Virus record (IMG/VR): IMGVR_UViG_2671180547_000008
From: a virus
Taxonomy: Duplodnaviria > Heunggongvirae > Uroviricota > Caudoviricetes
DNA: 6,438 nucleotides
Direction: 5' to 3' (one strand)
Positions 134-6,438 of this stretch are shown here, in pieces. The position numbers and the translations under genes are program-made. Positions within the stretch are counted from its first letter, which is position 1. Every line of letters begins with the position of its first letter. The notes below the pieces were generated by a model. It ran no database searches. It saw nothing but the letters and a program-made list of their open reading frames with translations, and was not told the origin of the DNA.

Positions 134-317
134 GGATAGCGGTCATGTGATGCCGGTTTCCCGGTAACTCAGCACCGGTATCTGAGTCAACGTTTTCTCT
201 ACTGGGTCATTTCCGATACGCCCTGCCTGCTGACAGGCTTTCATCACATCTGAAAATATAGCACCCTGACTGATACTGTAGTACCTAAGGTTCCAGAAAC
301 TGTGATGTATCCGGCAC

Positions 318-345
318 AGAAAAGCCCCTCCGGAGAGGGCTGGAG
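318..345 (-). terminator. Candidate intrinsic terminator downstream of the tRNA genes
   Basis: The minus strand reads GCCCTCTCCGGAGGGGC (GC-rich stem with one bulge, tetraloop) followed by TTTTCTG. It lies about 230 nt 3' of the tRNA-Arg(UCU) end. Confidence 0.3.
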
Positions 346-577
346 AGTGGCGCTATGTGCCATTGCATGATGCCGGGTGCCTCCCGGTGAATTCAGTACC
401 AGCACCTGAATCCGCGATTATCCCATATACCTACTCGCTGATTGCCCCTCCGCACAGGGGGATTCACCATGCCAGTTTCTTTTAACAAACTCCCCGCAAA
501 ACAGACAACTGTCAACCGTCTGAATTGTGAGACATTTAAAAAAAAGGCCCGCAAAAGCGAGCCAGGGAAAATAAGTG

Positions 578-760: not shown

Positions 761-1733
761 GCCCGAGCGCCAGTGCCGCTTTCACTGTCGAACCCAACCC
801 CATGAAAAAATCTGCAATCAGGTCACCCGGACGACTGCTAGCGCTGATTATCTGCTGCAGCATTTCTGCCGGTTTTTCGCACGGATGTTTCCCGGGATAG
901 AACTGCACCGGTTTATGCGTCCACACATCGGTATACGGCACCTGCACCGTCACGCCAAAATACCGCCGCAGATGTTTATATTCACTCAGCAGCTCCGCAT
1001 ACTGCCGGTTCAGTGAGGTATACGTATCCACCAGCTGGTGGTGGAGCTTTTCCAGTTCACCACGCCGATGCTTCTCTTCTGCCACCCGGGCAAACAGCGC
1101 CTGTAATTTCAGATAATCGCTTTCATTCGGCAACTGCCACTGACCGGCACTGAACCAGTGCGACACCATGTTTTTCTTTCCTGTGGCATCTGCAATCTGT
1201 TTTGCCGTTATCCCCAGGGCAGCTCGCGCATCACGAAAGTAAGAAATCAGCGGGGCCATCACATGCTGTTTCAGTGCACTGCCCTTCGCCGCATACCCGG
1301 CATCTTTCGGACGATACGGCCCCTGATAATGTTCCGCGAACAGAATGCGCTCTGTGGCGGGGAAATACGCCCGCAGGCTTTCCTTGTTGCATCCGTTCCA
1401 GCGTCCGGACGGCTTCGCCCAGATAATATGGTTCAGCACACTGAAGCGTTCACGCATCATGATTTCGATATCAGATGCCAGGCGATGACCACAGAACAGG
1501 TAAAGACTTCCGGCAGGTTTCAGCACCCGCCAGAACTGCGCCAGACACTGGTCCAGCCACTTCAGGTAATCATCGTCGCCCTTCCACTGGTTATCCCAGC
1601 CCTCAGGCTTCACTTTAAAGTACGGCGGGTCCGTGACTATCAGGTCAACAGAATTTTCGGGTAACGACCGGATAAATTCCAGGCAGTCGGCGTTGATTAA
1701 CTCACAACTGGATATTTTTACAGTATTAAGCAT
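761..1733 (-). CDS. Beta-class N6-adenine DNA methyltransferase (phage-type orphan MTase); C-terminus interrupted by the N-run and probably truncated
   Basis: Starts at ATG 1733. DPPY (motif IV) lies near the N-terminus (IVTDPPYF) and the FxGxGST SAM-binding motif I (DFFMGLGSTVKAALALG) near the C-terminus; motif IV before motif I defines the beta class. There is a central HTH-like insert (ITAKQIADATGKKNMVSHWF). The six-frame ORF nominally runs to 645, but only through Ns and across the tRNA, and the post-N translation (IRKERQPSKL...) lacks the expected R-x-IG-x-E continuation. Confidence 0.85.
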
Positions 1734-1869
1734 GGATCATTAAGCCTGTCTCTGATAGGCTCATTCTGCTTTTGCGCAAAGCAGTGGGCCTGAGGTTTGC
1801 TTGTGAACCCAACGCATGAGCAGATGGCTGGTGGGTGCCCCTAACACCCACCAGCCGCCCATTTACCAC

Positions 1870-1897
1870 AAATAAAAAAGCCTTCACTGCGGAAGGC
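1870..1897 (-). terminator. Rho-independent terminator (second terminator in the late leader)
   Basis: Minus-strand stem GCCTTC, loop CGCAGT, stem GAAGGC (plus 1880-1897), followed by TTTTTTATTT (plus 1870-1879 is an A-run). The stop codon of the 65-aa ORF (1884-1886) lies inside the stem. Confidence 0.65.
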
Positions 1898-2081
1898 GTC
1901 TGTAACAACCGAACTGATAGTCTGCCAGACCCGCCATAACCAGCTGGGTCAGTATTAACTGGCAGCGTTCGCGTGAAAGGTAAGTATTCTGCGCTATCTC
2001 CCCGACTGTCGCCGGTTCGGTAACGCTTAATTCATTAAACACCACTCTGGCGGTTTCTGTCATATCCTGCTGTTTTAGCAT
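1884..2081 (-). CDS. Small winged-helix/HTH-like protein (65 aa), uncharacterised
   Basis: ATG at 2081 is preceded by AAGGAA about 7 nt upstream. The segment TVGEIAQNTYLSRERCQLILTQLVMAGLADY resembles an AsnC/MarR-type HTH. It sits between the tR'-like terminator and the second terminator, directly upstream of the MTase. Confidence 0.5.
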   Translation of the reverse strand: MLKQQDMTETARVVFNELSVTEPATVGEIAQNTYLSRERCQLILTQLVMAGLADYQFGCYRRLPQ

Positions 2082-2197
2082 GTCTTTTCCTTTTCCGGTT
2101 AACGTGACACACCAATAACTCTTGTCGAAAAAGCCAGCAAGCTGAAAGACAGGTATTCACCGCCACCAGCGCGTTTACTGTACTGACGCGATTTCAG

Positions 2198-2225
2198 TCA
2201 TAAAAAACCCGCTCGGCGGCGGGTT
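2198..2225 (-). terminator. tR'-like rho-independent terminator downstream of the Q-like gene
   Basis: The minus strand reads AACCCGC-CGCCGA-GCGGGTT (7-bp GC-rich stem) followed by TTTTATG. It lies about 45-65 nt downstream of the predicted PR'-like start. Confidence 0.7.
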
Positions 2226-2272
2226 GTAGAAACTCTTCTAACGTCAGGCATAAAACGCCCATCGTTATAACG

Positions 2273-2300
2273 AATTTACCACAGATTCCGGAAAAATCAA
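2273..2300 (-). promoter_or_regulatory. PR'-like late promoter immediately 3' of the Q-like gene
   Basis: Minus strand has -35 TTGATT (plus 2295-2300), a 16-nt spacer and -10 TAAATT (plus 2273-2278). The -35 directly abuts the stop codon of the Q-like gene (2306-2308), the same geometry as Q/PR' in lambdoid phages. Confidence 0.45.
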
Positions 2301-3127: not shown

Positions 3128-3504
3128 TTTTTGACCTGCCCTTCAAGCATTATGGGATAAATCTTCACCCCCAGACGTCCACCAGATACTGGCTGAGCAC
3201 GAACGATATTGATTTCATCAAACTGCTCATCGTCCATTAGCAACCCCGCATGCGTCAGCGCATCCAGCGGCGCTTTCAGAATATTGTCCAGGTCACGGCG
3301 GCGCTTATCCGGTGGTTCTGCAATAATTTTTATTGCCAACCTTCCGGACAGGCTTAATTTCAGCCGCTGCTGGCGAACAATAAGCGCCACTGCCCGGCGA
3401 TAACGCTCCCCGGCTTTTGATACAAAATATGTGCTGCCACGACGACGCCAGTAAGTGTTCACCGTCGGCGGGTAAGGTAAAACAAATTCTATGCGCTCGG
3501 TCAT
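3124..3504 (-). CDS. rusA: RusA-type Holliday junction resolvase (crossover junction endodeoxyribonuclease)
   Basis: The 126-aa product has LPYPPTVNTYWRRRG, DKRRRDLDNILKAPLDALTHAGLLMDDEQ and VSGGRLGVKIY, which match the recalled RusA signature blocks ([48 protein letters not shown]). Its start follows the DUF968 stop directly (TAAATG). Confidence 0.9.
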   Translation of the reverse strand: MTERIEFVLPYPPTVNTYWRRRGSTYFVSKAGERYRRAVALIVRQQRLKLSLSGRLAIKIIAEPPDKRRRDLDNILKAPLDALTHAGLLMDDEQFDEINIVRAQPVSGGRLGVKIYPIMLEGQVKK

Positions 3505-5040: not shown

Positions 5041-5071
5041 AAAATAAAAACAAAAACCCGCCGAAGCGGGT
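5041..5071 (-). terminator. Rho-independent terminator of the hok transcript
   Basis: The minus strand reads ACCCGC-TTCG-GCGGGT followed by TTTTGTTTTTATTTT. It lies about 75 nt 3' of the hokD stop. Confidence 0.7.
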
Positions 5072-5140
5072 TAAGTGTGGGTGCATTGAGGATGCCTGCC
5101 CCATCAGAGGTGGCGAGGGATTTCTCCCCCGCCTGGTCTC

Positions 5141-5296
5141 TTACTCCTCAGGTTCGTAAGCTGTGAAGACAGCGACCTCCGTCTGGCCGGTTCGAATTCG
5201 TACCTCGCAGAGGTCTTTCCTCGTTACCAGTGCCGTCACTATGACGGTTAAACAGATGACGATCAGGGCGATTAACATCGCCTTTTGCTGCTTCAT
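5141..5296 (-). CDS. hokD: Hok-family type I toxin (HokD/RelF-like, 51 aa)
   Basis: The product MKQQKAMLIALIVICLTVIVTALVTRKDLCEVRIRTGQTEVAVFTAYEPEE has the Hok single transmembrane helix and the conserved C-terminal pattern (compare Hok ...[26 protein letters not shown]), and matches my recollection of E. coli HokD. An in-frame upstream ATG at 5353 (MNGKSRLASYVPKGKEKQA-) occupies the position of the mok start in the R1 hok/sok leader. Confidence 0.9.
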   Translation of the reverse strand: MKQQKAMLIALIVICLTVIVTALVTRKDLCEVRIRTGQTEVAVFTAYEPEE

Positions 5297-5344
5297 AGCC
5301 TGCTTCTCCTTGCCTTTCGGCACGTAAGAGGCTAACCTAGATTT

Positions 5345-5425
5345 GCCGTTCATAGATTGAGCCTCAGATTAATGTTAAGCGTCTTGCCGGACGCGTAATG
5401 TTAACTGGGGCTTTTCTCTATCTGC
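5345..5425 (+). ncRNA. Candidate Sok-like antisense RNA with its promoter (-35 at 5310-5315, -10 at 5333-5338)
   Basis: The plus strand has TTGCCT, a 17-nt spacer and TAACCT, which aligns by recollection with the R1 sok promoter (TTGCGC, 17 nt, TATCCT). The predicted transcript is antisense to the mok-like start region and ends in a U-rich stretch (GGGGCTTTTCTCTATCTGCCTTTTGG). Exact 5' and 3' ends are not determined. Confidence 0.35.
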
Positions 5426-5472
5426 CTTTTGGTGTTCATGCCTGAGACAGATAGCCTCAAGCACCCGCTGCA

Positions 5473-6305: not shown

Positions 6306-6438
6306 TGAGGTGTACTGGCAATAGCGGACACTACCATTTGTTCTTTTTTTAAGCAGCCATCTGATGATATTTTTCCCTGAAGGCTGCCGGGGAGATATTC
6401 CCCAGACGAGAGTGACGACGCTGACGATTGTAGAAAAT
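6306..6438 (-). mobile_element. Right end of a second, inverted copy of the same IS element, with the element body lying right of the window
   Basis: Exact reverse complement of 1-133. The plus strand begins TGAGGTGTACTGGCAATAGCGGACAC at 6306. Confidence 0.7.
6349..6438 (-). CDS. Transposase C-terminal fragment (partial at window edge), identical to the copy at 1-90
   Basis: Mirror image of 1-90; the stop codon is at 6349-6351 on the minus strand. Confidence 0.7.
   Translation of the reverse strand: MFYNRQRRHSRLGNISPAAFREKYHQMAA

Follow-up and report, generated by a model that had tools for sequence, protein, structure and literature searches.

A conserved winged-helix gene between two predicted terminators, upstream of a DNA adenine methylase gene in lambdoid prophages

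What is the role of a gene of only 65 codons that lies between two terminators and directly ahead of a DNA methylase gene? The question is raised by the virus record IMGVR_UViG_2671180547_000008 (Caudoviricetes), a stretch of 6,438 nucleotides which is called the window below and in which all genes are on the minus strand. An earlier note on this DNA had described the small open reading frame (ORF) as enclosed by a terminator similar to lambda tR' and by a second terminator whose stem contains the stop codon. It had proposed expression only on transcripts modified by the antiterminator Q, and had considered a role as late regulator or methylase controller conceivable. The comparison of related loci demonstrated that the 65-amino-acid (aa) ORF is a real, conserved gene, and that the ORF and the methylase form a conserved late-operon module of lambdoid prophages. 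Judging from the sequences, the ORF probably belongs to the control of the methylase. Our preferred model is a two-terminator lock with Q-dependent late expression, in which the small protein would be a regulator or an accessory of methylase expression; it is tentative, and its probability is estimated at about 45%. The Q dependence, the efficiency of termination and any regulatory activity of the protein are parts of the model that we infer.

The loci compared were gathered from one-genome-per-species contigs (24 loci) and from about 230 viral contigs, and contigs with distant homologues of the ORF were added to these. With the window as reference, the ORF differed from its relatives at a proportion of 0.08-0.39 of the nonsynonymous sites (pN) and 0.62-0.88 of the synonymous sites (pS), the latter being saturated. 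The median ratio of nonsynonymous to synonymous rates (dN/dS) was 0.12, and the third codon positions were 2.5 times more variable than the first and second ones. The length varied only between 63 and 68 aa among 104 distinct family proteins. The start position was conserved as well: M1 and its Shine-Dalgarno (SD) sequence represent the conserved start, and an SD-like core was kept in 87 of 95 distinct start regions. Versions of the protein reaching 94-106 aa can be found in databases, and the PHROG 331 profile begins 34 positions earlier. An N-terminal extension was nevertheless rejected for the window, where an in-frame TGA is located 29 codons upstream with no start codon between. Helix 3 of the predicted protein (RCQLILTQLVMAGL) is near-invariant while up to five synonymous codons are used per residue (4-5 for Leu, Thr and Gly), so that selection is seen to operate at the protein level. 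Synonymous variation was zero in the last conserved codons (Arg CGC, Gln CAG), as would be expected if the same codons also encode the 5' arm of a hairpin. A chance ORF or an annotation artefact within a terminator-rich spacer, which the shortness of the frame and the label 'hypothetical protein' in most records might suggest, is practically out of the question: the strong purifying selection at saturated synonymous divergence already refutes it, and the constancy of start, SD and length and the confidently predicted fold point the same way. The conservation of the ORF was thus borne out.

The terminator scan, carried out in the range 1600-2500, returned 4 sites compared with 1.1 +/- 1.1 in shuffled sequences. 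It placed both the tR'-like and the second terminator on the strand of the ORF, bracketing 2081-1884, in agreement with the earlier proposal. By sequence the second site qualifies as an intrinsic terminator, having a 6-bp stem (4 G-C), a 6-nt loop, 7 U in 8 positions and a dG of -8.9. The overlap with the ORF stop is real, but the stop is not wholly within the stem as had been claimed: it straddles the loop and the 3' arm, since in the TGA at 1886-1884 the U is the last base of the loop, and with the GA the 3' arm begins. In most enterobacterial lineages the 5' arm consists of the last two or three codons and the stop is located in the loop, often in a GUAA or GUGA tetraloop. The arms differ by lineage and still pair (GCCTTC/GAAGGC, GCCTCCA/TGGGGGC, GCCTCC/GGAGGC, CTCCGC/GCGGAG, CTGCCA/TGGCAG and CCGCCAG/CTGGTGG). 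When at least 5 uninterrupted pairs with at least 3 G-C were required, a hairpin overlapping the stop was present in 155 of 220 distinct related regions, compared with 20% at random positions inside the ORF. Conservation of the overlap was thus seen for the hairpin itself, but not for the U-tract in many genera, nor for every lineage, as detailed below.

In the distant loci L110-112 the second terminator is canonical, it lies 24 nt past the ORF stop and it is built of AGCUGGUGGC...GUCAUCGGCU plus U6. A terminator between the ORF and the methylase therefore recurs in a second form, and the order ORF, terminator, methylase is retained in spite of the exchanged terminator sequence. Its 5' arm and the 5' arm of hairpin A, in the leader RNA described below, look alike. 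Terminators flank the ORF on both sides in the window, in a Kluyvera locus (L004) and in the distant L110. A pairing between CAGUAA of the stop region and UUACUG of the methylase start region was also considered; it was rejected because the complementarity is not kept in other lineages.

Upstream of the ORF the window displays the lambda-type arrangement of a Q gene, a promoter with a pause-like signal and a terminator, from which we infer the functions of these parts. In the Q protein a zinc-finger region of the DnaJ type (CXXCXGXG; PF00684, below threshold) was recognised, as well as two segments that match the Antiterm family. The pR'-like promoter was read by eye from the sequence, its score of 8/12 being under the threshold of the scan. 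It is followed by AACGATGGG at 2266-2258, which is similar to the sigma-70-dependent pause element of lambda pR'. Because this late promoter is read just upstream, the first terminator was assigned as a promoter-proximal tR'; equivalents precede the ORF in the Kluyvera locus, in L110 and in 152 of the 220 distinct loci. If transcription stops at tR', the predicted product is a short RNA from pR', about 65 nt in length and with its end at 2198-2205. Such a transcript (window 2198-2266, minus strand) could be a small RNA (sRNA) in lysogens, and the Rfam cmscan of 2199-2305 (E up to 1) returned a chance-level Trp_leader match alone (E 0.66). The Q module upstream of the ORF varies among the loci, being of the PF03589 or the PF06530 type. 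In BLAST the similarity to other prophages is interrupted at the tR' hairpin (window approx. 2200-2225), some matches spanning just Q, pR' and tR', others just the ORF and the methylase. The ORF, the spacer and the methylase therefore move as one mosaic unit, and the terminator marks a recombination junction.

Over the ORF and the beginning of the methylase the window shares 95.1% identity with phage 1720a-02, and by way of this match the downstream enzyme, a beta-class N6_N4 methylase with an intact homologue of 349 aa, was assigned to the M.EcoGI/GII family. According to PMC5778455, M.EcoGII (349 aa) and an enzyme of 1720a-02 are very similar; M.EcoGII can methylate adenine whatever its context, its expression is harmful to the cell, and lysogens keep it silent. 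A methylase gene starting 140-180 nt after the ORF was present in 246 of 259 loci and in 23 of 24 species, whichever Q module is found upstream, and 8 of the 13 exceptions are contig ends. Matches to the module were obtained in 3137 of 5426 complete E. coli genomes; it also occurs in many Shiga toxin 2 (Stx2) phages, phiP27, 1720a-02, mEp460 and SfV. The position directly upstream of the methylase is thus kept in nearly all loci, and because of this tight linkage the suggested connection with the methylase is reasonable. The phage phiSTEC1575-Stx2k (L106, 1724-2600) still has the ORF and the stop hairpin, followed by a hairpin A in decay, and an AraC-family regulator gene stands in place of the methylase, just ahead of tRNAs and stx2; in PhiR5_1 (L107) the ORF is present and the methylase is missing altogether.

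The spacer between the ORF and the methylase (142-154 nt) is more conserved than the flanking coding sequence despite the saturated synonymous divergence. In the window it corresponds to a structured RNA leader of about 140 nt (1728-1868, minus strand) directly upstream of the methylase start, in which two hairpins, A and B, were distinguished. The inner helix of hairpin A has compensatory changes in 11 of 13 pairs. The basal helix of hairpin B pairs nucleotides -1 to -7 of the methylase AUG, and these pairs covary; the methylase start of the window has no SD, and an SD-like core is absent from 21 of 29 distinct methylase start regions. In an alignment of 25 leaders 97.4% of the cells were paired, and two-sided changes were seen in 11 of 34 pairs, as against 3.4 +/- 1.5 in shuffles (0/500) and 2-5 in slid controls; the z-score of the fold was -4.9. 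When distant leaders were added the number of such pairs rose to 20 of 34, in an alignment that was model-fitted and hence favours structure. With the covariance model built from the leader alignment, matches of 31-55 bits were obtained immediately before the methylase in phiKO2, Yersinia phage P840, VHML, N15 and Vibrio phage ST2-1pr. Since N15, phiKO2 and VHML carry the leader without the ORF in that position, the leader belongs to the methylase and not to the ORF. Conserved G-U pairs indicate that the structure is formed on the sense RNA strand; an antisense RNA or a DNA cruciform was rejected, as these pairs would be A-C mismatches on the opposite strand. A 33-aa ORF at 1862-1761 within hairpin A was likewise discarded, because it stops after 7 codons in most loci. 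No sense-strand match was obtained by Rfam cmscan in 1728-1900 (E up to 1), so the leader is without an Rfam family and can be regarded as a candidate new cis-regulatory RNA. In L110-112 the spacer is just 73 nt (3196-3268), the methylase has a normal SD and there is no hairpin B.

The ORF protein was modelled by AlphaFold2 from a 23-sequence alignment as a winged helix (mean pLDDT 90.8). The predicted elements are H4-16, b24, H26-33, H37-49, E53-56 and E59-62 (H1-b1-H2-H3-b2-b3), which is the topology of the winged helix-turn-helix (HTH) superfamily. Foldseek searches of the PDB and of viral models (BFVD) returned generic winged helices, none with E below 1e-3. Among them were IclR N-terminal domains (TM 0.82), SelB RNA-binding winged helices, MarR/OhrR and Z-alpha-like domains, and the top PDB matches also included winged-helix dimerisation domains of S-adenosylmethionine (SAM)-dependent O-methyltransferases. 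Two winged-helix families of Pfam, DprA_WH (best E 6.3e-06) and TrmB (best E 3e-4), gave weak matches, each with 12 of the 15 family members scanned. NCBI names the protein TrmB, and with the window protein the TrmB profile (PF01978) did not reach its threshold (18 bits, gathering cut-off 25.6, E 0.0026). NCBIfam gave no match, sequence searches of solved structures gave none below E 0.6, and PADLOC made no call on the ORF. PHROGs assigns the protein to phrog_331, function unknown. This family is a narrow one: 85 representatives among 1.84 billion were matched at an E of up to 0.001. No zinc-finger motif was found in the protein, which has just two cysteines, C40 and C59, the latter not universal. 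The surface of helix 3 (QLILTQLVMAGL) is conserved and semi-hydrophobic. Thus the family is already catalogued and uncharacterised, and its fold, as modelled, is a generic winged helix. Remote homologues of 75 aa are gp51 of N15 (L264, 1006-1233) and gp51 of phiKO2 (L266, 703-930); hhalign connected N15 gp51 with the ORF family at a probability of 94% (E 1.4e-7), and the motif N/DMTE.A is common to them.

The most conserved non-coding sequence of the module is an element upstream of the ORF with the family consensus CTTGCTG-N10-12-(C/A)AGAGTTAY.TGTRTG. In every lineage it is found at a fixed distance, approx. 30 nt before the SD of the ORF (30-70 nt upstream of the ORF), and it is retained in L109, which is AT-rich, and in L110-112, loci of otherwise low conservation. 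No sigma-70 consensus promoter was detected between tR' and the ORF in the scan of the window. The best sigma-70 reading of the element is TTGCTG-17-TAYNTG, with an invariant G where T-7 would be expected; readings for sigma-70, sigma-32, sigma-E and sigma-54 were all rejected, either the spacing or key bases being unfit. Pairing of the element RNA with codons 4-6 or with the start codon was also dismissed, because only register shifts were seen and RNAalifold gave -1.4 kcal/mol, and so was an upstream ORF beginning at the conserved (A/G)TG, the frame and the length of which vary among loci. In many loci a motif like the CAGAG(TTA) of the element is seen again 15-22 nt ahead of the methylase AUG. 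The element itself and a GCTTT..AAAGC palindrome in the leader are candidate operator sites for the ORF protein.

In the two-terminator model these parts would act in succession. In the lysogen, polymerase starting at the constitutive late promoter would halt at tR', and polymerase leaking through would be halted again at the second terminator, the one fused to the ORF stop. The leader of 140 nt, devoid of an SD, would hide the methylase start and further limit translation of the toxic enzyme, so that terminators and leader together would make up a multi-layer lock silencing the methylase. Following induction, Q-modified polymerase would pass both terminators, and the small protein and the methylase mRNA would be made together. 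The protein would most likely bind nucleic acid and tune the expression or the action of the methylase without being needed for catalysis. Since the hairpin has its 5' arm in the coding sequence, a ribosome finishing the ORF would, judging by the size of the ribosome footprint, block the hairpin, and termination would be strongest on untranslated or uncoupled transcripts.

Several observations weigh against this model. The U-run after the stop hairpin has at least 5 T in 8 positions in just 114 of the 220 distinct regions and is nearly absent in some genera, and Providencia-type loci are without a stop hairpin. The protein is mildly acidic (median isoelectric point 5.4, net charge -1.5), an uncommon property among small proteins that bind nucleic acids. 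M.EcoGII has its full activity without the small ORF protein (PMC5778455). The two genes can also be separated: phiSTEC1575-Stx2k, with its methylase replaced, and PhiR5_1, devoid of one, both still carry the ORF, and methylase and leader occur without the ORF in that position in N15, phiKO2 and VHML. In N15 and phiKO2, gp51 is just upstream of the late promoter, outside the Q-dependent operon, with Q encoded 5 kb away. Finally, the element at 2141-2104 could be the ORF's own promoter, driving Q-independent transcription.

This last point leads to an alternative that we consider somewhat unlikely, namely that the ORF is an autonomous unit like a phage moron, with the upstream element as its own promoter, weak or activator-dependent, and with the stop hairpin as its terminator. 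The lysogen would in that case produce the protein, which might e.g. repress the methylase or the late region or act on the host, and the terminator would shield the methylase from this transcription. The fixed position and the exceptional conservation of the element, up to L109 and L110-112, would be accounted for. So would the order of ORF, terminator and methylase, retained despite the replaced terminator sequence, and the expression of the remote homologue N15 gp51 outside the late operon; moreover, a terminator after the ORF is without evident purpose if Q-modified polymerase is the sole transcriber. However, the element lacks a sigma-70 consensus in any lineage tested, and in loci of the Providencia type the ORF is not separated from the leader by a terminator. 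It is less probable, indeed unlikely, that the winged-helix protein, the stop-fused terminator and the covarying leader constitute an undescribed control system for a toxic methylase. In one version of it the leader may be a new class of cis-regulatory RNA, such as a translational lock responsive to a ligand or a protein, or an RNase III switch; the protein would be the trans-acting partner of the leader in lambdoid phages, by analogy a counterpart of Mu Com unrelated to it in fold.

A mechanism like that of Com and Mom, in which the protein would bind hairpin A or B of the leader and open the methylase start, so that the toxic enzyme is translated after the protein has accumulated, seems quite unlikely. 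Here too a small gene precedes one for a toxic DNA-modifying enzyme, the start of the latter gene being SD-less and enclosed in a conserved helix; binding of RNA hairpins is known for some winged helices (the SelB domains are among the fold matches), and the invariant helix 3 parallels the near-invariant leader. Yet the same leader precedes the methylase in N15, phiKO2, P840, VHML and ST2-1pr with no ORF in the operon, L110-112 keep the ORF with a short spacer, a normal SD and no hairpin B, and the protein is acidic. The acidity, together with the conserved helix 3 surface, would better suit binding to a protein than to nucleic acid, be it the methylase (as an inhibitor, antitoxin or targeting subunit) or a host protein. 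We regard this as very unlikely. The strict linkage to a toxic enzyme and the dimerisation domains of SAM-dependent methyltransferases among the top fold matches would fit; against these stand the generic nature of the fold matches (E all above 1e-3), the full activity of M.EcoGII alone, the survival of the ORF after methylase replacement, and the terminator and 150 nt between the genes, unlike the organisation of toxin-antitoxin pairs.

Features of the module in the window (all on the minus strand; coordinates refer to the window).
Feature	Coordinates	Basis and remarks
Q antiterminator gene, 273 aa	2306..3127	Pfam PF03589 Antiterm, E 1.6e-53
pR'-like late promoter	2273..2300	-35 TTGATT 2300-2295, 16-nt spacer, extended -10 TGgTAAATT 2281-2273
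tR'-like intrinsic terminator	2198..2225	scan: AACCCGCCGCCGAGCGGGTT + TTTTATGACT at 2225-2206; fold
Conserved upstream element, CTTGCTGG-N9-CAAGAGTTATTGGTGTGTCAC	2104..2141	alignments; candidate promoter or operator
Shine-Dalgarno AAGGA of the 65-aa ORF	2088..2092	7-11 nt before ATG, read from sequence
Gene of 65-aa winged-helix protein, PHROG 331 family	1884..2081 (incl. stop)	ATG to TGA
Second intrinsic terminator	1870..1897	scan: GCCTTCCGCAGTGAAGGC + TTTTTTATTT at 1897-1880; stem GCCTTC/GAAGGC, loop CGCAGU, U-run
Leader hairpin A	1816..1862	approx. 19 pairs, 4-nt 3' bulge (CAUC); RNAalifold and pair counts
Leader composite hairpin B	1734..1809	RNAalifold and pair counts
DNA adenine methyltransferase gene, M.EcoGI/GII family	771..1733	Pfam PF01555; DPPY motif; 3' end lost in N-run 733-770

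From high to low coordinates the window contains small phage genes with hok/sok, a DUF968 gene, rusA, the Q gene, the ORF unit, the methylase, tRNA genes and an STnc100-like RNA. The hok/sok toxin-antisense locus is at 5141-5466 on the minus strand (Pfam HOK_GEF; Rfam sok, 112 bits), a weak isrK-like match is at 5051-5132, and the STnc100-family sRNA (312-501, minus strand, 124 bits) is downstream of the tRNAs. The N-run that interrupts the 3' end of the methylase falls in a region where an intact relative (L001) has tRNA-Ile and tRNA-Arg genes; the window is approx. 190 nt shorter there, and the sole tRNA called on this side is tRNA-Arg(tct) at 578-654. Positions 1-133 and 6306-6438 are perfect inverted copies of 133 nt, corresponding to the 3' end of IS600 (IS3 family), and two oppositely oriented insertion sequence copies flank a prophage fragment of 6.2 kb.

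What makes the module interesting is mostly the leader RNA and its connection with a toxic methylase of biotechnological importance. M.EcoGII, a member of the downstream enzyme family, is in wide use as a reagent for chromatin footprinting. The toxicity of M.EcoGII and its silence in the lysogen were known already, the mode of its control was not (PMC5778455). If the protein or the leader indeed gates the methylase, this would explain how temperate phages time the deployment of a genome-wide methylase. In many Stx2 phages the module lies between Q and the stx genes, therefore every late transcript that makes Shiga toxin there must pass through it. In the literature searched on the Q-stx region, M.EcoGII and N15 we found no description of the 65-aa ORF, the stop-fused terminator or the conserved leader. 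The module offers testable parts: a stop-coupled terminator, a leader hiding the start codon, a small winged-helix protein and a conserved upstream element.

When compared with known systems, the unit would work like the late-control cassette of lambda with an extra lock. As in the lambda late unit, which comprises Q, pR', tR' and more terminators farther on, Q is directly upstream, the promoter has an extended -10, AACGATGGG is in the early transcribed segment, a terminator follows approx. 60 nt after the start and the late genes come next. The difference is that the first genes after tR' are not lysis genes, which come later, but the winged-helix gene with its stop-fused terminator, the leader and the methylase. 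The short pR'-tR' RNAs such as StxS that have been described in Stx phages (PMC7547250), and the lambda 6S RNA, have their likely counterpart in the predicted RNA of about 65 nt; this differs from them in its sequence and Q type, is without an Rfam match, and is a matter separate from the ORF itself. The gp51 genes of N15 and phiKO2 stand beside the same late promoter, terminator, leader and methylase; unlike the window ORF, they are upstream of the promoter and off the Q-dependent transcript. With the morons of phages the ORF shares the form of a single small gene with its own terminator between two late-operon genes and mosaic junctions at the borders, but it has no recognisable sigma-70 promoter, and it is strictly linked to one neighbour instead of being free-standing.

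The term methylase controller, used in the earlier note, could not be sustained in the sense of the C proteins of restriction-modification systems. A small HTH protein gene beside a DNA methylase and a conserved element upstream of its own gene are in common. The fold, however, is a winged helix and not Xre-type, no palindromic C-box-like inverted repeat was found upstream of the ORF, neither the window nor the loci examined contain an endonuclease gene, the methylase is an orphan without sequence specificity, and a terminator separates the genes. Closer in logic is com-mom of phage Mu, where a small gene is located just upstream of a toxic late DNA adenine-modification gene whose translation start is in a hairpin. 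Com is a zinc-finger protein, and the com and mom genes overlap. The module resembles it, on the basis of genes and RNA sequence, both in the small gene before a toxic late adenine-modification gene and in the methylase start sequestered in a conserved hairpin. It differs in that the protein is a predicted winged helix with no zinc finger, the genes are 150 nt apart with a terminator in between, and leaders of the window type also exist without the small gene.

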